Below are positions 6,893-56,911 of a stretch of DNA of 64,000 nucleotides, in pieces. The notes under the pieces were generated by a model. It saw only the letters and a list, made by a program, of their open reading frames with translations, was not told where the DNA came from and searched no databases. Source of the stretch: Massalongia carnosa (taxonomy: Eukaryota); assembly GCA_965645245.1 (NCBI GenBank), contig OZ287067.1, forward strand, positions 186,001 through 250,000, written 5' to 3'. A program made the position numbers and the translations under genes. Every line of letters starts with the position of its first letter. Position 1 is the stretch's first letter.

Positions 6893-7500
6893 ATAGGGAT
6901 ATAAATCAAAATTGATGTTTTGCAGAATATTTTGAAACCAGAGGGGGAAGAATCAAGGAAGACTATATAAAACAGGTGCTATTATCGGTTGTTTCTCCGG
7001 AATTTCCGGAAATTAATTATATTTCTTCTTATGAACGCATCTAGTATTCTCTTCATGCTCGAGAGTCCGGTGAACTTCTCTTTCAGGAGGATAAAAATCG
7101 AGCTTATGATTTGGGGTTTGGAAAGCAAAATCTTTTACAATTGGAAGATTCACTCAGAATTTTATAATTTAACGATGATGCATGGCCTTCATGTCAAGGG
7201 ACTGGATTGGATGGTCAAGCTTTCTAATTGACTGAGTGTATAGCTACAGCTAGGCTAGATTAGCTATTCAAGAAATCGGACAAGGAAGCAGAACTTTCGA
7301 GACTCGACCCCTTCTTTTATATCTGTTCCTTACCTCCTTACCCCTTTGTTTCCTTGATCTTCGATGTCTCCTATTCATCTCCTTTTCCTAAGTTAATACG
7401 AAGACACCTAATGGGGACCGGGTAATTATGGTTTCGAAGATCGGAGGCGGAGCCGTACTCGATCTAACCGCATCGAGAAAGTTTGGAATAGCGCGCACTG

Positions 7501-7640
7501 ACCAATGAAGCTGTAGTAGGTCTAATAAACCTGCGGTAGGCCCAATGAACCCGCGGTAGGTCCAATGAACCCGCGGTAGTTCCAATGAACCTGCGTTAGG
7601 TCCAATGAACCCGCGGTAGCTCCAATGAACCTGCGGTACG
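7501..7640. repeat. 20-bp minisatellite, 7 units (consensus tccaatgaaccygcggtagg)
   Basis: Head-to-tail units with substitutions and no spacers. Confidence 0.9.
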
Positions 7641-7925
7641 GTAGGTAGGGACAGGATAGAGGGGGCAACTAGGGATAAGGCCGAGATCCTTTTGGTTCGA
7701 AGCCGTTTCATGACACTTCATTGCTTACTAGATTTTAACATAATCGAAAATTTTTGGAGGTCAGGCGCGTGAAAGAAACAGGCGGACACCAAAATAAGCG
7801 AATATTATCAAAATTGAACTTACTACCATCTATAAAATAATTACCATCTAGTCATCTTGCCATTCATGTCTAAAACATCATCTATTCTTTTAGGCATTGG
7901 TTCGATCCATTCATTGATCGTTTCC

Positions 7926-8463
7926 TGTCAGGGCATAGAAGGAATAAGGGCTAAGCTAACTAAGCGGGCCTTAGTTCTACGGCTAGGCTTAGTCATATGG
8001 AAAGCAGTTGGTCTGCGTTACGCGGCTGGTATCTACTGCCGAGAGTATAGTACGAGCGATCGAGATATACGAGGATGCTCGTACGATTAGTGAGCGGATG
8101 GTACGATACAGTCAGCACAGTGTCCACGATACAGTCAGCACAGTGTCTACGATACAGTCAGCACAGTGTCTACGATACAGTCAGCACAGTGTCCACGATG
8201 CAGTCAGCAGAGTGTTTAGCCGGCTTATCCGGTAGGAGTAATGGGCGGTCAAGATAGTTACAGTATCAAGGGCCCAGAGGGTCAAGGGCTTCGGTCCGGG
8301 TATATAAGGAGGCTGCTCGAGGGAGATGCAATCTTCAACGATTAGTCTTCCGCTTTACCTACATACTTCTTTTAGTATATTAGTATAGCAAATCATTAGT
8401 GTCTTCACATTGTCACATATCCCTAGGCCTGGTGTCTGATAATCGCCAGGTCTGACTCTTACA
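7926..8463. repeat. Solo LTR (538 bp) inserted in A1
   Basis: tgtcagg...cttaca ends; TSD TTTCC (7921-7925, 8464-8468); absent from copy A2. Confidence 0.9.
8102..8215. repeat. 23-bp tandem repeat (~5 units) inside the solo LTR
   Basis: tacgatacagtcagcacagtgtc units. Confidence 0.9.
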
Positions 8464-10263
8464 TTTCCTGAGAAAGACTGACCCAACCCGCCTTAATTGC
8501 AGCTATTGTGGTGTCATCATCCCAATGAGGTTGACGACCTACCCGTTGTTTGGGCACCTGCCAGCAATTTTCGATAGGAGAGAGATCAGGAGAACGAGGG
8601 CAGTTAAAGTAGTATTTTAGCCCATGCTCGTCCTTCCCCGATCCATGTCCTGAATCGCCATCTTCTTCCAACACGAAAATCGGGTCTGTTTCGAGCCATG
8701 TTTTTACTACCGGTTCCAGAACGAAGTCAATATACACCATCTGACTCATCTTTCCATTCGAATTGCCGGGAACCTCATAAAAAATCAGCTTTGATTTGAA
8801 GTTCCACCCCACAGCAGCCCAACAATGATATCGTTTCTGTTTTTTGTCCTTCTCTTCAGGCTCATGTTGTTCCTGAATGCAATCCTGACACGTACGCTCG
8901 CCAGGTTTTCGAATGATGCGTAGTCTTCGTTGAGGTCCTCGTCCGAAATGAACTTCATCGGAAAAGCGAACTCTTTTCCAATCATTCAACGAGTATGTGT
9001 TTCGTTTGTTCCAAGCCCAGTCCTTTCGTGCAATCATCAAATCTTTCGGGATGTAGGTTTTTGTGCGTGCGAGACATTTACGGTAGTTTCGTTCATGCAT
9101 CGCTCGTTGTATAGTACGCCAGGAGACGGAGGAAGTCTCAGCAGCTGCACCCAGTTGATTCCAGGTCAGTGATCTTCCCTCCAAGCCCGGTTTGCAATAT
9201 TTCATCCTTACGATCTATCTGCTTCTTTGACAGTTTGCGAGGCTGACCACGAGTCTCCGATTTGTTTGTATGATCATGCCGTCGATTAGTTTCTTGATCG
9301 TTGAGTATTTCATAACCTCGAGTATGTCCCACGCCGAAAAACTCGAAAACCTCTCGCTTTGAACGCAAAATCCCTTTCGCCTTGGTAGGAGTGGTATGCT
9401 CAGTATTTATAGTGATTCGTGACTCTAGAACAGGCTCCATTGCTTATAAAGAATTGATAAATGTGTGTATGTACGATGTAAAAATTAAAAAACTAAGGTG
9501 TGGGTGGTGCGGGGAAATTTTGGTGTCCGCCTGTTTCTGTCACGCGCGTGGAGGTTAATCAAGCAACGAATCGGAAGTTATGAAAAGATTATCACCATTC
9601 TGGATGATATAAAGTGTGACGGTTCGACTATTCGTGGTGCAGACGACAGCACCTATAGCGAACATGGTAGGAGTCCCAGTTATAGTGGAATAGAGCTTGG
9701 TCTGCGGACTAACTATTGAGCCTTTTGGTCAGGAAGGACAGGTGGCGCAATTGTAGAAATCTATTCACTATCTCTCTTCGTCACGAATGTAAATTGATTG
9801 AAGTTTAAAATTTTAAACTACGTTTATTGTTTCTTTTTTTAAACGCGCGAGTTGATAATCCGTTATTAAATAAATGATATATTTCTTAAACGAGTTAAAT
9901 CGCATGTTTTAAATTATGAAATTTTCATAAAATACTTAAAAAGTAACAAAGAATAAAACTTAAATTTTAAAAATCAAGTAGACATTTCTGATTTTTGTTT
10001 TTTATAAAGATTCAAATATTTTTCGCAGATACTCTGCGTTAGTTTTTAATAATGATGATGATATATTTATACTCCGATATGTCACCGGCCGTAGGCCGAC
10101 CCATGCGGGCAAAGCTATCTAAGTTATGTTATATGGAAAAACTTTTTCAAGTGTAAAAACCATATCCCTTGATACCCGGGTCGACGTCGGATAGGAGACG
10201 TAGAGCGAAAATATTTTGAGAACTGTGACGCCTTATAAGATAGGAAGGAAAAGATAAGTGAAA

Positions 10264-23467: not shown

Positions 23468-23739
23468 TGTTGAAATAGGTATATGACTATGGCTATATGG
23501 CTATGTAATAATAAAGGTATGTATGACCGTGATATTAAGGATGAAGAGTTGCTATGCAGCAATCTTTTCCAATTACTGGTCACCCTTCTAAGCGAGGTGA
23601 TCTTATCTTATCTTGGGACTAAGCCTAATGCGGCATCTACGGTTTCCGTAGATCATCTGTCAATCTAGGGCAGCCGTAGGTGCTATGTTCATTGAACTGA
23701 TAGGTGTTTATTGTGCTAGTAGGAATTGGATATTCAACA
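23468..23739. repeat. Solo LTR (272 bp)
   Basis: tgttgaa...ttcaaca; TSD CAGCT; inverted homolog of the interrupted LTR 46931-56819. Confidence 0.92.
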
Positions 23740-24725
23740 CAGCTTAATTACCTCGCTATAACGAACGTCACCAAAAATTTGAAAATAATTCTCGTTATAT
23801 CGTTATAAAGTGTTATTCGTTATCCCTTCGTTGGCCAGAATAGCAGCTATTTCGGTAGTATTGAATATTACAACACCGTCAGTCGGGTAATGACTAATAA
23901 CTTTAATCCGACCAATCAGATTTACTGAATTTTCTATTTTCGTAAAAAATGAGTACATCGCTATCATTACCTAGGTAAAATGTCTAGCGGCTATTTTTAA
24001 AATGTCCCAACACGACTCCCATTTATAACAAGCCCCATAGCTCTTATATTGCCATATGGTCTGAGATGCGCGTCTTTTTTTGGTGCAGTTTCTATTCGTT
24101 TCCTGTAATTGTCGGCGCCGCTTGAGCTGAGGTAGTTGACTTTTTTATCTTTTTAGAAAAATACTCCCGTTCGCACGGGGACGGAGTCGACTTGACATTC
24201 CGATTAGAAATTACCACGACGTCTAATTTGCCTTTTCGCAGGGCACCAGCCTGATTAGTGAGTAAAGCTTTCAATATTTATTGTTGAAATCTCGATGACT
24301 CAACGCTGAATTAGAGTACAGAATTTGCAAAAGCTTGACTGCGTTCAACACAGCTGTTTTCAAAATGAAAATGAATGAAGGCCATCAATAGCGACGATCA
24401 GATGCCCGAGGATTATAGTATGATCGTTGTTGTGCATTACTATCCGACCTACCCATATATTGATTGTATTCGACAATAAGCATTGGAAATAGAAGCTTCT
24501 TTTCATTAGCATTACCATTAATAGTAATAGCCGAATCTTCGGGAATTCCATGACGACGCCGAGAATCTTTATAGACAAAAGTTGATAAATCCTCAATGAT
24601 ATGAATAGTAGTCCTAAATTGTCCTTTGTTTAAATCTACCCAAGCTAAATATAACATATTACCTTCTTCAATATTTAATTTCTTATCAGCTTTGACCGTC
24701 ATGAAAGCTTTTTTCCCCTAGTACT

Positions 24726-46247: not shown

Positions 46248-48024
46248 GTGTGGAATACACTTAGTCAGTAACAGCAACATTATTAATACGTAGTGTAACT
46301 GCTAGCTTGTACGCACCCTGGATGAGTAGTAAAAAGGCTGTTTAGTAAAGATTTACACAGGGGGGGGGGGGGGGGGACGGTCGGGGAGTGTCCCTAAGCA
46401 TCTCGGAACATAAACTCAGTAAATCCTTTATATCTCTCTCGTATAGTGGAAGTTACTGGTTCTTGTCTCTCCTGTGCTGTCCTGTCCTCCATATTCGATT
46501 ATTTCCTCGACGGTGTCCCAATACCACACTAGTCTCATCTTATGAAATATAAATTCACTTTGTAGGTATAGTAGCATGATTGTCATTGAAGGTAATTATC
46601 TATGTGGGCTATTTGTCTGCTTTATATAGCAGTCACAAAACAGTCACATCTAGGAGGTCAGACCTTGTCCCCCTGACGGTCAGACTTTGTCTCCCATCTC
46701 TGCTTGTTTAGGCACTTTGCAAGGCACCTCCCGAGGCTCATGATGGATGCCCATGATAATGGTGGCCTCATCATCTAACATCCAACACATCTGTCCAAAT
46801 TACACGTTTCCAATCCTCCATTGTCCAATCTTTGTACTTGATAGCGAATTCTAGGCGGGATTTCTTCATAGCGGGAGTGAGATCTGGCTTCCATATTGGT
46901 TTGACTTTTTTATATCCATTATTTAGTATGTGTTGAATATCCAATTCCTACCAGCACAATGAACTCCTATCAGTACAATGAACATAGCACCTACGGCTGC
47001 CCTAGATGGACAGATCATCTACGAAAACCATAGATGCCGCATTAGGCTTAGTCCCAAGATAAGATAAGATCACCTCGCTTAGAAGGGGGTGACCAGTCAC
47101 GCGCGTGACAGAAACAGGAGGACACCAAAATTTCCCCGCACCACCCACACCTTAGTTTTTTAATTTTTACATCGTACATACACACATTTATCAATTCTTT
47201 ATAAGCAATGGAGCCTGTTCTAGAGTCACGAATCACTATAAATACTGAGCATACCACTCCTACCAAGGCGAAAGGGATTTGGCATTCAAAGCGAGAGGTT
47301 TTCGAGTTTTTCGGTGTGGGACATACTCGAGGTTATGAAATACTCAACGATCAAGAAACTAATCGACGGCATGATCATACAAACAAATCGGAGACTCGTG
47401 GTCAGCCTCGCAAACTGTCAAAGAAGCAGATAGATCGTATGGATGAAATATTGCAAACCTGGCTTGGAGGGAAGATCACTGACCTGGAATCAACTGGGTG
47501 CAGCTGCTGTGTCATGAAATAAAGTTTGAGTTAAAACCTAATGATTACCGAACCGTCAAGCGGCGATCGAGGTAAAAGCCACCTGAAAGCCTATTCAGAT
47601 TCATCCTCGGTATGAGTCTGAATAAACCCCTTACTCCACTCCACCAATCTCCTCACTCCACTATACCCTCTTATCGCTAGAACGATCACATCCACGGGCC
47701 CACTTATCGCTCCACCTTATCACCGCCACCATCACCAAAATCTCTCATCTAGGGTGAAGGTAAAACATGAGAAGAAGGGGCTGGCTCAGGTATAAAAAGA
47801 GGACATATCCTGTAGATAGTTGACTCCTCGTCCGACGTCTTGTATAGCAAACCATCCCCTAGCTATAGCTTCATTAATAAAGACATCTTGATCACCCAAT
47901 CCCAGTCTTAGGAACATTAGTTCAATCCCTAACCCAGTCCTTGACATTACGTCGGACCTGATCATTATAAGTGCCCTCCAAAGCATTTTTCTCCCATCTA
48001 TCCCCTTTACCATAATCCATCGTC

Positions 48025-49182
48025 ATGACTGATCAAATGGATACCGAATCGACTCAAACCGCCGCAGAATATCTTCAAGGACATATCAACGAAAACCCTC
48101 AAGGACTCGTTGATAGCATCGCTCGCATGCAGGCCGAGAATGCGGAACTTCATCGACGAATCGATGCTTTGTCGACTCAGGCTCCTGTCCCCGCTCCCGT
48201 CCCCGCTCCTGCTATCAATCCCACCTTGGACTCTCAGCTGGCTGAGGTGATGAAGATCCTCTTAGCCAAAAAACCCGTCGATATCCGTTCCGAGAAGCTC
48301 CCTGACATCTCCGAATACGATGGTGAGGAAGCCAAATTGGACTCCTGGGAGCAAAGCCTGATCCAACGAATGCATGTTAATCATGATCGTTATCCAACCG
48401 ACGTCGCCAAGATCGCCTATGCGGAGAACCGACTCACCATTGGGAAAAGAGCTCACAACCTCATGAACGCCTATCGATTAGACGGCATCTGCACGCTAAA
48501 GACCTTCTTCGAATGGCGTACCGCTCTTCGTAAGGCTTGCGGTAATCCCTTCGAGCAGGAAGATGCTCGCAAGTATCTTTGCGAGACCCTTAAACAGGGT
48601 ACTCTGAGTTTCGAAGAGTACTATAACCTCTTCGCCCAGAAAAAGGATCGCTCCAAAATGGAGGATGCTTCTCTAATTGATGCCATGAAGTCCAACATCA
48701 ATTATGCCATTCAAGCCGCCGCCGTCCACTATCGAGTCCCCGGAACCAACCTGGAACCAGTCACCTTCGATCAACATGTCGCAATGTGGTTGAATACCGA
48801 TCGGAAAATTCGCCAGATCAAACACCTGGCTCCCAACAACAGGACTACCCCGACATCCACAACCACCTCGTCTCAGCGAAAGGATAAAGCGACCATCACT
48901 CTCGCCGCACCCCTTGCTCGCACACCGGATATCCCTTCCGCACCAGTCCCAATTCCTTCTATCGGAGATCCCATGGACCTGAGCCAGGCTATGGCAGCCG
49001 TCAAGGGTAAATCGCTGAAAACGGAAGGGGTGAGGGATATCTGTGATAAATGGAATCTCTGCCATTATTGCAAGCAAAAACACCCGGGGAAGACAGCCAT
49101 CGACTGTCCTAATAAGAAAACCAGTCTTCGCTCATCAGATACGACCTTCATTTCCGAGCTCGAAGACTCGAAAAAAGCCTAG
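48025..49182 (+). CDS. gag: G4 Gag (385 aa)
   Basis: Open ORF with GDPMDLS and CHYCKQKHPGKTAIDC. Confidence 0.92.
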   Translation: MTDQMDTESTQTAAEYLQGHINENPQGLVDSIARMQAENAELHRRIDALSTQAPVPAPVPAPAINPTLDSQLAEVMKILLAKKPVDIRSEKLPDISEYDGEEAKLDSWEQSLIQRMHVNHDRYPTDVAKIAYAENRLTIGKRAHNLMNAYRLDGICTLKTFFEWRTALRKACGNPFEQEDARKYLCETLKQGTLSFEEYYNLFAQKKDRSKMEDASLIDAMKSNINYAIQAAAVHYRVPGTNLEPVTFDQHVAMWLNTDRKIRQIKHLAPNNRTTPTSTTTSSQRKDKATITLAAPLARTPDIPSAPVPIPSIGDPMDLSQAMAAVKGKSLKTEGVRDICDKWNLCHYCKQKHPGKTAIDCPNKKTSLRSSDTTFISELEDSKKA

Positions 49183-52100
49183 GTCCTGCGCATCGTCGCG
49201 CGCAGGAACCATTTCTCATTTCTTCTTGTCTGCTAGCCAATTCTTTTTCTCCCCCCCTCCGATCAAACACTCGCTTTTCTGCAGCAACCGCTTTGGAGCA
49301 ATTTGAGTCTGAAGAGGCGTTTAGAGATAGCCACTTAGTGGTTTCATGTACTTTACGTCTCGGTAGATCTCGAATTCAAACTCTTAGTTTGATTGACTGT
49401 GGTGCATCCGGCTATGCATTCATTGACAAGAAATTCGCGCAAACTAATCAAATCCCTCTTCATTCTCTGAAATACGCTCGACGCCTCGAAGGTTTTGACG
49501 GTCAACCGGCCCTGACTGGAAACATCACTCATGCGGCCGAAGTAATCATGGATCTAAACGGACACACGGAAGAAATGTTTCTCTTCGTAACTGGATTGAA
49601 AACATACCCCATTGTTCTCGGACACCCGTGGCTGCGTCGGCATCAAGCCCATATCGATTTCAACACCAACTCTCTATCATTGGCGTCTCCTTTCTGCCTC
49701 GCTCACTGCTGTCCTCGTCCGGTCAAAGTACAAGCTCGTACTGAGGAAGAAGTTCTTTCGCCTGCTGAAAGTCAGGAGGTGTGGAAATCCGAGGACATAA
49801 ATCCAGCCTCAATTGAAGCCTCAATTGAAACCTCAACAATCACAATCACGCCCGAAAACGTCGGCCAGGAGACCTCCGTGAAGGAGGAGATGAAAGACGT
49901 CAGTCGCATTGAAAAAGCGATTGAACAAGGCAACCCACCAAAAATTCGATACCGAAGCCCCTCCTCCAAACGAACTTCGGTAGAAAGACGCGCCGCTCAG
50001 CAAAAAACCAAACCCTCAGTCATGGACATCTGCGAATTGTCTCGGACGCAAAGAAAACCACGAGATGTTTAGCCTCTCCTTGAAAGAAATCGATCGCTTC
50101 CTCGGAGAGACCCCAACCGAACCCAAAACCGAAATCCAATCCGCAACCGAATTCAGTCGCCATAGCAGTCTGAATAAACCGAAACCAACCTATCAACCCA
50201 ACCCGCGTCACAGTCCTAGTGAAAAGGAACTTCATCTAGCCCTGTTTCGCATGAACCAAGCCCTGACACTGCAGACATCAGTGACCGCCCAAGAATTAGA
50301 CGAATATCGCAAGCAGAAAAACGTCGATCCAGCCCTCCTCCTTCCCAAGCAATACCACGACCTATTGCACGCCTTTTCCAAAAAAGACTCTGACGTCTTA
50401 GCCGATCATCGACCCTATGACCATGCCATCAAGCTAAAAGAAGGCTTTCAGGCACCCAATCAAGCTCTTTACGGCATGAGCCGTGATGAGATTCAAGAAC
50501 TTCGTCGCTATCTGGATGAGAACCTGGCTAAAGGTTTCATTCGAGCGAGCAAATCGCCCGCCGCGTCCCCGGTTATGTTCGTAAAAAAGCCGGGAGGAGG
50601 ACTTCGCTTTTGCGTGGACTATCGAGGTCTCAATGCAGTCACCGTAAAAAATCGATATCCACTTCCCCTGATTGCTGAAACCCTGCATCGATTAGCCAGG
50701 GCCAAGATATTCACCAAGCTAGATATCATTGCAGCCTTTAATCGCCTTCGAATCAAAGAGGGGGATGAGGAACTCACCGCCTTTCGAACTCGTTTCGGCC
50801 TATTCGAATCCCTGGTCTTGCCTTTCGGTCTGTGCAACGGACCCGCCTCTTTTCAACATTTCATCAACGACATTCTTCGAGAATTTCTTGACGATTTCTG
50901 TACAGCCTATCTCGATGATATCCTTATCTATAGTGAAACCGAAGGCGAACACGAGATCCATGTCAGAAGAGTTCTCAACAAATTGATAGAAAACGGGCTA
51001 CAATGCGACATCACCAAATCCAAATTCCATGTTAAAGAGGTTGCATATCTGGGATTAATCGTAACCACCGAGGGTATCAGAATGGATTCTGCCAAAGTCG
51101 AAACCGTAACCAACTGGCCAACCCCGATCAACATGAAGGATGTTCAAAGCTTTTTGGGATTCGCTAACTTCTATAGAAGATTCATCTATGGCTTCAGTAA
51201 TATAGCCGGTCCACTAACGAATCTAACCAAGAAGGAAGTCGAGTTCAACTGGACTGATCAATGTCAGCAAGCTTTCAATACTCTCAAAAATGCTTTTACC
51301 TCCGAAAAAGTGCTTCTGCATTTCAACCCTGACAAACCCATCATCGTCGAAACTGACGCTTCCGATTATGTCTCCGCTGGTATTCTCTCGCAATATGATG
51401 ATGAAAACGTGCTGCGCCCCATCGCCTACTTCTCCAAAAAACACAATCCGGCCGAATGCAACTACGAGATCTACGACAAAGAGTTAATGGCCATCGTCCG
51501 TTGCTTTGAAGAATGGAGACCCGAGTTGGAAGGCTCTGCTTTTCCCATTAGCGTAATTTCAGACCATAAAAACTTGGAATACTTCGCTTCCACCAAGCAG
51601 CTCAGTCGCAGACAGGCCCGTTGGTCTGAATTCTTGTCTCGTTTTGACTTTAAAATAGTCTATCGACCCGGAAAAGCTGGAGGAAAGCCAGATGCATTAA
51701 CTCGTCGATCAGGAGATCTCCCTAAAGAGGGGGATGAAACCGACGAAAGACAAAAATACCAGCATCAAACCATACTGAAAACTCACAACCTAGATGATAA
51801 AGTTGCAGCAAGCTTCCTCTCCACCATAATGCTAGCCCCTACGTTCATCGAACCCGAGCCCGAGTTCATTGCACCCGATCCCGAGTTCATCGAACCCGAC
51901 CGAGCTGACGAACCCCAGTTGGATCAACCTACCGATCAAGTCGATTCCGATCAAGACCCTCTAGATGTCCCCACTCAACTGTTATGGGAACAGGCTCAAC
52001 TTCGAGATCAATTCGCATCAAAAATCCTAGACGCACTCCATGACAACGTCCGTCATCATCCTAAAATTCAGCTAGCCGAGTGTGAGAATAGAGATGGAGT

Positions 52101-53517
52101 TCTTTATTTTCGCGATCGCAAGTACGTACCCAAGTCAGATCGCCTGAGACTTCGTCTCATCCAGCATGCCCACGACAGTGTAGCGGGTAGTCATCCTAGC
52201 CACTCCAAGTGTTATGAGTTGATGAGTCGATCGTACTAGTGGCCCAATATGCATCAAACCGTAAAAAGATTCATTCGCAACTGTCACACCTGTAAGCGAT
52301 CCAAACCGTCCCGTCAACGATATCAAGGCTGGCTGCGCCCTCTATCCCCGCCTGAACGTCGATGGCGTGATGTCTCTATGGACTATGTAGGACCACTGCC
52401 TCCTAGTACCTTCATGGGTGTCACCTATCGATATGTTCTGGTCTTCATCGACCGTCTCTCCAAGATGCGACACTTTGTCCCTACCACCTCCATGGAGGCA
52501 GAAGAAGCTGCCAACTCCTTCTATCAGAACGTGTGGAAATTACACGGACTCCCCGACGCCTTGACTTCCGATCGAGGCACTCAGTTCACCTCCGACTTCT
52601 GGGAACTCATGTGTAAACGTCTTAAGATTGATGCTAGGTTATCAACCAGCTTTCACCCTGAAACCGACGGCCAAACCGAAAGGGCTAATGCGACCATGGA
52701 GCACTATCTTCGAGCCTATGTCAGTTATATGCAAGACGACTGGGCTCAGTACTTACCAGGTGCTGAATTCGCTAGCAACAACACCGACTCCTCCAGTATC
52801 CTCGCTTCTCCCTTCCTAGCCAATCACGGACAACATCCTCGAGTAGGATTCGAGCCCGAAGAACCTCTACCCCATGATCTGACCGCTCAAGGAAGAGCCA
52901 ACCTGGTTGCCGCTAATCAGTTCGTGGATAAGATGAAGGATGTAGATACTCATCTTCATGACGAAATGTTAATCGCACAAGCCTCCTACGAAGCCACCGC
53001 TAACGAGAATCGTCGCCCGTGCCCCCGCTATCTCGTGGATGATATGGTATGGTTAAATACTCGAAACATTCAGACAGCCCGACCGGCAGCCAAACTGAAT
53101 GATCGACACGCCGGCCCCTATAGGGTCACCAAAGTATTTTCCAATCCTCTTATCGTTCAGCTTGAACTTCCCGACACGCTACAAGTTCATCCCGTTTTTC
53201 ATGTCAACCTTCTGCAGCACGATGCAGACGATCCTCTTCCTGGCCAACTTCACGAACCTCGAAATCCTATAGTCGGTACAGACGGTCAACGCGAGTGGTA
53301 TGTCAACAGTATTCTCAACTCAAAGACGGATCGACGTTATCAACCACCGCTCCTCAAATATCTTGTGAATTGGGAAGGACATCCTATGACATGGGAACCT
53401 TTTAACCTGCTAACCAATTGTCAGCAAGCAATCGATGAATTTCATGAAGCTTACCCTCATGCCATAGGGCCTCACATAATCCCTTGTCTCATTCCTCGAT
53501 GTCAGTGTCATGACTGA
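49170..53517 (+). pseudogene. pol: G4 pol, with a frameshift near 50040 and a TAG at 52237
   Basis: [39 protein letters not shown], chromodomain WYVNSIL..YLVNWEG..TWEP. Confidence 0.92.
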
Positions 53518-54841
53518 ACCAGCATCGCAGGAGCTCAGCCTTCGAAGGGGGAGCTACTGTCATGAAATAAAGTTTGAGTTAAAACCTAATGATTACCGAA
53601 CCGTCAAGCGGCGATCGAGGTAAAAGCCACCTGAAAGCCTATTCAGATTCATCCTCGGTATGAGTCTGAATAAACCCCTTACTCCACTCCACCAATCTCC
53701 TCACTCCACTATACCCTCTTATCGCTAGAACGATCACATCCACGGGCCCACTTATCGCTCCACCTTATCACCGCCACCATCACCAAAATCTCTCATCTAG
53801 GGTGAAGGTAAAACATGAGAAAGAAGGGGCTGGCTCAGGTATAAAAAGAGGACATATCCTGTAGATAGTTGACTCCTCGTCCGACGTATTGTATAGCAAA
53901 CCATCCCCTAGCTATAGCTTCATTAATAAAGACATCTTGATCACCCAATCCCAGTCTTAGGAACATTAGTTCAATCCCTAACCCAGTCCTTGACATGCTG
54001 AGACTTCCTCCGTCTCCTGGCGTACTATACAACGAGCGATGCATGAACGAAACTATCGTAAATGTCTCGCACGCACAAAAACCTACGTCCCGAAAGATTT
54101 GATGATTGCACGAAAGGACTGGGCTTGGAACAAACGAAACACATACTCGTTGAATGATTGGAAAAGAGTTCGCTTTTCCGATGAAGTTCATTTCGGACGA
54201 GGACCTCAACGAAGACTACGCATCATTCGAAAACCTGGCGAGCGTACGTGTCAGGATTGCATTCAGGAACAACATGAGCCTGAAGAGAAGGACAAAAAAC
54301 AGAAACGATATCATTGTTGGGCTGCTGTGGGGTGGAACTTCAAATCAAAGCTGATTTTTTATGAGGTTCCCGGCAATTCGAATGGAAAGATGAGTCAGAT
54401 GGTGTATATTGACTTCGTTCTGGAACCGGTAGTAAAAACATGGCTCGAAACAGACCCGATTTTCGTGTTGGAAGAAGATGGCGATTCAGGACATTGGATC
54501 GGGGAAGGACGAGCATGGGCTAAAATACTACTTCAACTGCCCTCGTTCTCCTGATCTCTCTCCTATCGAAAATTGCTGGCAGGTGTCCAAACAACGGGTA
54601 GGTCGTCAACCTCATTGGGATGATGACACCACAATAGCTGCAATTAAGGCGGGTTGGGTCAGTCTTTCTCAGGAAACGATCAATGAATGGATCGAACCAA
54701 TGCCTAAAAGAATAGATGATGTTTTAGACATGAACGGCAAGATGACTAGATGGTAATTATTTTATAGATGGTAGTAAGTTCAAATTTGATGATATTCGCT
54801 TATTTTGGTGTCCGCCTGTTTCTGTCACGCGCGTGCCAGTA

Positions 54842-56711
54842 CGGAGGCGAATCTCAAAAGTAATGATAATACGCTAAAAGCTAGTGCCGTAATTTAAATT
54901 TTCCGTACCGAGCAAATTTTCCCCTTTTCTTTCCCCTTTTCTCATCCCAAATCATTTACGAACCAACATTTGATCAAATCATCATCATGGTCAATAAATC
55001 AGCTGATATTTCTTTGCGGGCTCAGGTCTTGACGTTGTCTTATTGCACCCCGGCCTCAATTGAATTTATTGCAGCTACTACAGGTTATTCTGTCCCCAAC
55101 ATTTATCGTATTCGTCGCATTGCCAGGGATCGAGGATTTGATCCCGCCATTTCTTTGCAGGTGCTTGATAAATACGCCCGTCATGAAGAAAAATCTGGTC
55201 GACCGAGAAAGGCTACTACTGAGAAAGAAGATGAAGTCATTGATCTAGTCATAAAAGACAGATACGCCCGTGAAAAAACCAGTGCCCAGTTGGCAAGAGA
55301 AGTTGGACTGTCCAGATGCACCGTGTGGAGAATCCTGAAACAAAGAGGCTATAAAAAAGTCAAACCGTCGTATAGACCAGGGCTTACTCCTGAAATGAAA
55401 GCGGCTAGACTGGCTTTTTGTCTCCTGTATAAAGACTGGACCGTGGAGGATTGGAAGCGGGTTATTTGGTCAGATGAAACAGCAATAGTGCTTGGTCACC
55501 GTCGCGGAGCTGTCAAAATTTGGCGTACAACCAAGGAAGGAAGAAGACCAGTCAAATCCACCGTACGTGCCAGGTGGCATGGGGCTCATGAATTCATGTT
55601 TTGGGGATGCTTTTCCTACGATTGGAAGGGGCCATGTCATTGCTGGAAACCGGAGACAAAAGCGGAAAAAGCGGAAGCCAAAACCAAGCTTGACGAGATG
55701 AATGCTGCATTGGAAGCCAGTGAGAGATTAAATTGGGAGCTGACCAATGGAATGAGACGTCTTTCAACTCGCAATTTACCAGGAAAAAAGCCGCAATGGA
55801 AATGGGATGAGGAACATGGAAAGATGATCAGAAAAGAGGTAAAGGAGGCATTGATTGGTGGCGGTATCAAAACGTCATACTTCTGCCAAAATTGATTCCT
55901 TTTGCTCAGCAATGCAATGCAAAAAGAAGAGAAGCCGGATTGTCTGAAATGATCGTACAGGAAGATAAGGCTCCGTCTCATGCTTCCAAGCATCAGATTC
56001 CCATCTTCTCTCGTCATGGCATCGAGCGTCTTTTATGGCCCGGAAATTCTCCTGATCTCAACATGATTGAACCCTGCTGGCCCTGGATGAAGCGACGTAC
56101 AACTGCCAAAGGTCCTCCTAGTTCTCGGTTAATTGCTGAATCTATGTGGCATCGCACTTGGGACGATCTACCTCAGGAGAATATTCAGGCATGGATTGAA
56201 AGAATTCCACGTCACATTGCAAAAGTCATTGAATTGGAAGGTGGAAATGAGTATTGCGAAGGACGTTTGGACGTTGATGGACGGACCAAAGAAGGAAAAA
56301 TGCGACTTCAACAGCTGAGGGAAGAATTGCTCAGTAATACAGCAAAACCAGCTTCTTCTTCTTCTTCTTCTTCTTCTTCTGTGGCGTCAACGAGACCATC
56401 ATCCAGACAATCAAATGATGATACACCCAGCCCGTTGAATGTCAGGGCAGTTACCCCTGAGCCCCCTACACAGAAGCCATTGACACCCCCCTTATTGAGA
56501 AAAAGAGCCGTTTTATCTCCGAAAAATCACCTTCCCCCACGCATTCAGAAGGTTATTCGTACTGCAGCCAGTTTCAGACCAAAAAGACGTTGATTAGATG
56601 GTTGGTAATGGCATTTGTAGATAGTTGGTAGAATTTCAGGCTCGGTATGGAAAATCTAAATTACGGCGCTAGTCTTTAGCGTATTATCATTACTTTTGAG
56701 ATTCGCCTCTG
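54842..56711 (+). mobile_element. Tc1-like element B, ~70-bp TIRs, TA TSD; DD34E transposase 54987-56593 with one frameshift
   Basis: cggaggcgaatctcaaaagtaatgataatacgctaaa.. inverted at 56640-56711; VIWSDET, QEDKAPSH-(34)-SPDLNMIE. Confidence 0.92.
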
Positions 56712-56911
56712 TAATAGGAAAAGATTGCTACCTAGCAACTCTTTATCCTTAACATCACGGTCATACATACCTTTATTGTTACATAGCTATATAGCCATAG
56801 TAATATACCTATTTCAACAGTATGCGAGCTACTGAACTTTGAGATACCTTTACTTCCGCAGCTATCTCAAGGGTTGATTTTTCTCTTCCATGTCGATGTG
56901 TGGTGACTTTT

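Follow-up and report, generated by a model that had tools for sequence, protein, structure and literature searches.

A clade of Tc1-like transposons associated with 5-bp, non-TA target site duplications in filamentous ascomycetes

TA at the insertion site is a shared feature of the IS630-Tc1-mariner group (PMC7325037; the articles cited here by PMC number were available in part, and statements about them hold for those parts). In a window of 64,000 nucleotides from Massalongia carnosa (assembly GCA_965645245.1, contig OZ287067.1, positions 186,001 to 250,000), we analysed two copies of a Tc1-like element, A1 and A2, each of which lies between direct repeats of 5 bp. We are confident that A1 and A2 are recent defective copies of a compact Tc1-like transposon, and that the whole clade to which it belongs integrates with a 5-bp stagger at GC-rich targets. 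The first-pass annotation had proposed a Tc1-fold lineage making 5-bp, non-TA duplications, and this proposal gained support from the two insertions, from two empty sites, from an exact 5-bp repeat at 19 of 31 insertions and from the occurrence of such repeats in all major subclades. The departure from the TA rule is real and extends across a whole clade with the Tc1/mariner fold: 5-bp duplications at GC-rich sites consistently accompany a Tc1-fold transposase gene that is bounded by conserved terminal inverted repeats (TIRs). The features concerned are listed in Table 1.

Table 1. Coordinates in the window of A1, A2 and the sequences nested in or surrounding them (LTR, long terminal repeat; TSD, target site duplication; ORF, open reading frame; HTH, helix-turn-helix).
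Feature	Position	Strand	Remarks
A1, second copy of A2's element	7762..9550	-	1789 bp, solo LTR inside
A1 TSD GAGGT, one side	7757..7761	.	
A1 TSD GAGGT, other side	9551..9555	.	empty form in contigs without 7755-9548 (1794 bases)
Solo LTR in A1	7926..8463	.	538 bp, TG..CA; TSD TTTCC (7921-7925, 8464-8468)
A2 left TSD copy CCAGT	47093..47097	.	single in paralogous LTR
A2 left TIR (CACGCGCGTGACAGAAACAGGAGGACACCAAAAT)	47098..47131	+	34-bp inverted match between ends; nhmmer profile match
A2 5' part	47098..47509	+	HTH part of transposase, ORF 47208-47522; frameshift after ..ILQTW
Ty3/gypsy-type LTR retrotransposon nested in A2	47510..53995	+	foreign to the Tc1-like element
A2 3' part	53996..54835	+	DDE part, ORFs 54039-54554 and 54478-54756; frameshifted relative to A1
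A2 right TIR	54802..54835	-	inverted match, nhmmer profile match
A2 right TSD copy CCAGT	54836..54840	.	
Host LTR, first part, entered by A2 and Q	46929..47097	+	94% to paralog 23741-23575
Q, separate TA-flanked Tc1-like element	54842..56711	+	74-bp TIRs at 92% identity
Host LTR, remainder past Q	56712..56819	+	92.6% to paralog 23575-23468
Uninterrupted paralogous LTR, empty-site control (gggtgaCCAGTAattgg)	23468..23741	-	single CCAGTA

The two copies have TIRs of 33-34 bp in common. Across the whole window, a 33-nt TIR pattern matched with 0-2 mismatches at 7762, 9550, 47098 and 54835, i.e. as two inverted pairs, and gave no match in a shuffled-sequence control. With hyphens marking the element ends, the junctions read ttttgGAGGT-CAGGCGCG...CGCGCGTG-GAGGTtaatc for A1 and gtgaCCAGT-CACGCGCG...CGCGCGTG-CCAGTacgg for A2. 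Direct reading thus bears out the earlier description of a perfect 5-mer on both sides of each copy, different in the two (GAGGT and CCAGT), and TA is absent directly against the TIR at all four ends.

Both insertions can be compared with an empty form. A2 lies in a host LTR, a paralog of which is uninterrupted elsewhere in the window. The left flank of A2 and the sequence resuming past element Q meet at base 23575 of this paralog; therefore the uninterrupted site had CCAGTA once. The single CCAGTA of the paralog stands as the first-pass annotation had it, but its account of the right side needed correction: the right flank of A2 is another transposon, Q, and the LTR resumes only past it. To the right of A2 come CCAGT, a single A and then Q, which is itself flanked by TA at 54840-54841 and 56712-56713. 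Q duplicated its TA and A2 duplicated CCAGT. For A1, the empty form was recovered from public sequencing runs, where one contig in each of two runs (X11 and X12) joins position 7754 to 9549; the element has 1789 bp, and the 1794 bases skipped exceed it by 5. At this junction, seven letters (TGGAGGT) can be assigned to either side. In X11, a loose end at 9549 consists of a diverged copy of the left flank of A1, read straight into the right flank; among the loose ends listed for public-run contigs over the window, none falls at a TIR boundary. Whether paralogs or alleles, the A1 empty forms show the 5-mer once.

Q entered a TA right beside the target of A2, and the same 6 bp of one LTR have consequently received two different transposons. 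TA duplications had also been noted at other elements of the window (B, D and E); the one among them that was checked, Q, has them. Two ORFs of 302 and 233 amino acids (aa), with a 4-base overlap, encode the transposase of Q in two parts.

The first-pass annotation had asked whether most other copies of the family would prove TA-flanked or devoid of 5-bp repeats. We surveyed 80 metagenome loci encoding relatives, to which the two insertions of the window were added. Thirteen of these loci had too little flank, 25 had no inverted pair and 41 had one; L080 was assessed separately. Among the 41 paired loci, 3 outgroup elements, 2 with a contig end at the TIR and 4 with ambiguous ends (L006, L008, L021 and L058) were set aside. 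The 32 scorable loci represent 29 distinct insertions, 3 of them being the same insertion in two assemblies, which makes 31 with those of the window. Element ends were set by an nhmmer profile of the termini, independently of the flanks. An exact 5-bp repeat borders 19 of the 31 insertions (17/29 in metagenomes, 2/2 in the window), and none has TA on both sides. This is not the refuting outcome that the first-pass annotation had named. When each left flank was compared with the right flanks of the other insertions, 8 of 930 cross-pairs matched, a rate at which the binomial probability of at least 19 matches is about 7e-32. Shifting the register of both ends from -4 to +4 gave 0, 0, 0, 2, 19, 0, 0, 0 and 0 matches, the 19 being those at register 0.

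The duplicated 5-mers are biased in composition. Of the 19, 13 have C at position 1 and 14 at position 2, while 12 have G at position 4 and 16 have G or C at position 5; the flank background is about 25% per base (about 0.26). A or T is favoured two bases outward of the 5-mer on both sides. The approximate target consensus, W-N-CCNG[G/C]-N-W, is weakly palindromic and GC-rich, the opposite of an AT-rich TA site.

Elements of the clade are 1.25-1.45 kb long, with TIRs of about 27-66 bp, ends that read CA[A/C]GCGG.. or CTCG.., and no other encoded gene. Two of them (L002 and L004) are seemingly intact: each has 1270 bp, 66-bp TIRs that are 98.5-100% alike and an ORF of 365 aa, and their TSDs are ACCCC and CCTGC, respectively. 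The family also includes internally deleted derivatives of 415-621 bp that keep its TIRs (L045 2932-3513, L066 507-1081, L069 2765-3385 and L074 3017-3431). These short forms are non-autonomous and resemble miniature inverted-repeat transposable elements. None of the four has an exact 5-bp TSD; no repeat flanks L045, L066 and L074, and a 7-bp repeat flanks L069.

The protein places these elements in the Tc1-like lineage, as had been proposed from its motifs. The 248-aa ORF of A1 matches Pfam DDE_3 above the cut-off (E 5e-8) and HTH_Tnp_Tc3_2 below it. When the ORFs of A1, L002 and L007 and the homologous proteins P0014 and P0007 were scanned, DDE_3 exceeded its cut-off (28.6 bits) in all but the L007 ORF; of four clade proteins, three reached 32-46 bits and the fourth, the L007 ORF, 24.9 bits. 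HTH_Tnp_Tc3_2 scored between E 8e-6 and 1e-3, always below the Pfam cut-off, and the first HTH has no Pfam match; NCBIfam IS630 was likewise below its cut-off (E 1e-8 to 2e-10). The sole sequence match in the PDB is the catalytic domain of Sleeping Beauty (SB100X, 5cr4; E 7.8e-5), an alignment in which DGDSGH stands against DNDPKH and SPDLAPIEN against SPDLNPIEN, with three extra residues past the His in the clade. We modelled P0014 with AlphaFold2 from 62 sequences (mean confidence score, pLDDT, 83.4). Two helical bundles precede the core in this model, and its best Foldseek matches are Mos1 structures (4u7b, E 5e-12; 5hoo and 3hot, to 1e-10), followed by Sleeping Beauty 5cr4 (TM-score 0.74-0.75 on the target) and SETMAR 3f2k. 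The predicted catalytic residues, in P0014 numbering, are D165, D262 and E300. With the register set by the Sleeping Beauty alignment, the second Asp and the Glu are separated by 37 residues in 46 of the 82 proteins that have all three motifs, by 38 in 26 and by 39-56 in the rest; the 34-residue spacing of the Tc1 family proper (DD34E) was not found among clade proteins. A DDE core, a mariner/Tc1-like fold and TIRs around a single transposase gene, all marks of IS630-Tc1-mariner elements, are thus present, and the TA target and TA duplication that go with them are absent.

Past the second Asp, D-S-G-H-G is almost invariant in the clade and is followed by a 3-residue insertion. Two further motifs of P0014 are nearly invariant in the clade, a CxxC (KCIAC, residues 125-128, before the core) and a CxDC (residues 188-191, in the loop past the first Asp). 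They may form a zinc site common to fungal Tc1-like transposases. As a cause of the changed duplication these motifs were rejected, for CxxC or HxxC occurs at the same places in the TA-flanked or outgroup loci L080, L071 and L079.

Phylogenetic analysis with FastTree, on a query-anchored alignment of 66 metagenome loci and A1, groups 60 tips into a monophyletic 5-bp clade on a long branch with a support of 0.98. No major subclade is without exact 5-bp TSDs. Clade proteins have a median identity of 44% with each other and of 25% with the outgroup of TA-flanked relatives. Two loci outside the clade, L068 and L080, are flanked by TA and have ends reading CACTG.. and CAGTGGGG.., respectively. Other outgroup loci gave no TSD call (L073, with a contig end at the TIR; L079, with ambiguous ends; L071, L076 and L077, with no TIR found), and a tblastn search with P0014 did not pick up Q at E 1e-3. 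Few outgroup ends being scorable, the TA state outside the clade is read only from L068, L080 and Q. Searched with the A1 ORF, 470 candidates yielded 330 proteins at E <= 0.001, and named hosts of homologues are Colletotrichum, Bimuria, Rutstroemia, Pyrenophora, Parathielavia, Fonsecaea and Clathrospora. The clade is widespread in filamentous ascomycetes. DNA of the window is present in public runs labelled lichen metagenome and in two organisms.

Several observations weigh against a uniform 5-bp duplication set by the element itself. Twelve of the 31 scorable insertions lack an exact 5-bp repeat: seven have no repeat at all (L013, L014, L044, L045, L061, L066 and L074), three have repeats of 6-7 bp (L011, L047 and L069), L001 is offset by one base and L037 matches at 4 of 5 positions. 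If the four ambiguous loci are taken as failures, the metagenome tally becomes 17/33. The contigs with the A1 empty site are short (the shorter side has 49 letters) and the flank of A1 is a high-copy repeat with a very high summed depth, so that the empty forms may be paralogs and not alleles. Moreover, the link that we infer between transposase and stagger comes from their consistent association. The insertions that depart from 5 bp may have mutated or recombined, or may come from chimeric assemblies of metagenomes. The 6-7-bp repeats, which lie directly at the TIRs (L011 668-2024, L047 2738-4170 and L069 2765-3385), may reflect occasional variation of the stagger or a one-base slip of the ends.

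Two other explanations were weighed. One is that the 5-mers arose by chance or microhomology, or that the ends were mis-set and hide a real TA duplication. The window, which holds only two insertions, and the 7-letter ambiguity at the A1 junction would leave room for this, but it would have to explain exact 5-mers at 19 of 31 insertions against 8 of 930 cross-pairs and a repeat that works in register 0 alone. The ends were placed by profile and not from the flanks, no end is adjoined by TA, and the filled form minus the empty form equals the element plus 5; we consider this explanation extremely improbable. A second possibility is that another, 5-bp-duplicating transposase of Transib-like or integrase-like type moves the elements, the Tc1-like protein being a passenger or inactive. 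Duplications of 5 bp are indeed typical of other enzyme families, and both copies in the window encode broken proteins. However, the elements have only 1.25-1.45 kb and no second gene, and in L002 and L004 the ORF extends almost to the TIRs; across proteins with a median identity of about 44%, TIR type goes together with protein clade and 5-bp TSD; and the Pfam scans of clade proteins returned no RAG1-like or rve match. Such a foreign enzyme is thus very unlikely, if slightly less so than chance or mis-set ends.

A connection with Transib/RAG, raised in the first-pass annotation, did not hold. Transib elements share the 5-bp duplication, and the ends of the window copies begin with CAC, as theirs do. 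Transib encodes a RAG1-like core, whereas the clade encodes DDE_3 with a Tc3-type HTH, and its ends read CAAG, CACG or CTCG, i.e. CA[A/C]G or CTCG with no fixed CAC heptamer. Protein family (DDE_3) and fold (that of mariner and Sleeping Beauty) rule out a Transib identity, and the resemblance is limited to the stagger.

The transposase of this cut-and-paste element is a divergent Tc1-like DDE enzyme with a putative N-terminal HTH pair and an RNase-H-like core. If the element's own transposase sets the stagger, the two active sites of the dimer would attack phosphates 5 bp apart, as in integrases that duplicate 5 bp, in place of the 2-bp-apart attack on a sharply bent TA; given integration with a 5-bp stagger, gap repair would duplicate 5 bp instead of TA. 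An altered target-contact segment beside the second Asp, D-S-G-H-G plus three residues, may contribute. HIV-1 integrase makes 5-bp duplications. In Sleeping Beauty, P247, three residues past the second Asp, and K248 are modelled near the target DNA and their mutation shifts target preference; P247 is there equated with S119 of HIV-1 integrase (PMC8934666). Clade proteins have Ser and Gly at these two positions, so the altered residues fall where Sleeping Beauty target choice has already been implicated. Among candidates for what changed the target capture we place the D-S-G-H-G(+3) segment first, as a lead rather than a result.

Classic Tc1 elements end in CAGT. Duplications longer than TA also have precedents: Tc4 and Tc5 of Caenorhabditis elegans duplicate TNA, and the ciliate TBE and Tec elements duplicate 3 bp. 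All of them belong to the same group or are related to it, so the stagger can change within the fold; they differ from the clade in duplicating 3 bp, not 5, and in being animal or ciliate lineages. Like the Tc1 family (Tc1, Sleeping Beauty and the fungal impala), the clade has two predicted HTH followed by a DDE core, and consists of short single-gene elements with TIRs and SPDL.PIEN at the catalytic Glu. Unlike that family, it duplicates 5 bp at CCNGG-like targets and not TA, its ends CA[A/C]GCGG.. or CTCG.. differ from CAGT, and it has D-S-G-H-G plus three residues where Sleeping Beauty has D-P-K-H. The label DD37E given to impala (PMC7325037) coincides with the spacing most frequent in the clade, a comparison made by label alone. 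Q, one base away from A2 and a TA comparator within the window, is likewise fungal and Tc1-like, lies in the same host genome and matches DDE_3 and HTH_Tnp_Tc3_2; it differs in its TA flanks and in the 34 residues between second Asp and Glu, as counted on the translation.

We lean towards regarding this as the first recognised IS630-Tc1-mariner clade with a 5-bp stagger at CCNGG-like sites, one that is old, widespread in filamentous ascomycetes and still has seemingly intact members. No IS630-Tc1-mariner element with a 5-bp duplication was found in a search of full-text literature, which excluded Repbase, Dfam and supplements, nor in the available parts of PMC13469147, PMC9977792, PMC7325037, PMC5751038, PMC8934666, PMC2851567 and PMC3630058. 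The recently described fungal families Dici and Tc1-OP1/MP1 are TA-flanked (PMC13469147, PMC9977792), and the fungal survey PMC5751038, in the parts available, names no 5-bp Tc1/mariner lineage. The biology could nevertheless be as described here and the family already catalogued with its 5-bp TSD in a library of the Repbase or Dfam kind. Homologues are common in sequenced ascomycetes, whose genomes have been mined for repeats, and entries of repeat libraries are often missing from papers; fungal members of the clade may also be present in the additional files of PMC7325037. Against prior cataloguing, the full-text literature search yielded no such element, and TA is given or handled as the rule of the group in the parts available of PMC7325037, PMC13469147 and PMC9977792. 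We regard it as possible but rather doubtful.

TA duplication serves as a defining feature of the group, by which transposable-element annotation pipelines delimit and classify its members. A large fungal clade that breaks the TA rule will be mis-bounded or mis-classified by such pipelines. Because the length of a duplication reflects the geometry of transposase and target, a change from 2 to 5 bp within one fold offers structural biology a comparative handle on what sets the stagger. If our reading is true, the clade would represent a natural experiment in which the attack of a mariner-type dimer has been re-spaced, with 5 bp in place of 2 bp. It might then also supply small (about 1.3 kb), TA-independent transposon tools. 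Tools that depend on TA could be complemented by its intact and very compact members, whose targets are GC-rich.

A1, read as its reverse complement, is 98.5-99.3% identical to A2 over their common parts. Without its nested insert A2 has 1251 bp, which gives an element of about 1.25 kb. The HTH and DDE parts of the A1 transposase lie in separate ORFs (9138-9440 and 8459-9205, respectively). The frameshift after ..ILQTW is common to both copies, and relative to P0001, a homologue at 92% identity, both have an 8-residue deletion between the second Asp (D262) and the Glu (E300). A1 and A2 are therefore defective copies of one lineage. Sharing these defects, they are non-autonomous; either an intact relative mobilised them in trans, or both descend by decay from the same defective parent.

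Both copies have in turn received LTR elements. The Ty3/gypsy-type retrotransposon in A2 is bordered by a TGCTG duplication (47505-47509 and 53996-54000) and has LTRs of about 439 bp that are 99.5% alike with TG..CA ends. Its open frames correspond to gag (385 aa), a protease region (259 aa), reverse transcriptase/RNase H (724 aa) and integrase (422 aa), and from its sequence it looks young and possibly active. The solo LTR of A1 is missing from other copies, as a joint from 7920 to 8464 that skips 543 bases is found in runs X11, X12 and X14. A 7-bp duplication for this LTR was ruled out; its TSD is of 5 bp and the 2 extra letters are a coincidence. Inside this LTR, a 48-bp sequence is repeated at a distance of about 69 bp, and the LTR has a summed depth in the public runs far above that of the Tc1-like element. 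The flanks of A1 (7300-7754 and 9666-9847) are a high-copy repeat in the same runs, with tandem units of about 60 bp and a self-match at 86% over 7502-7638.

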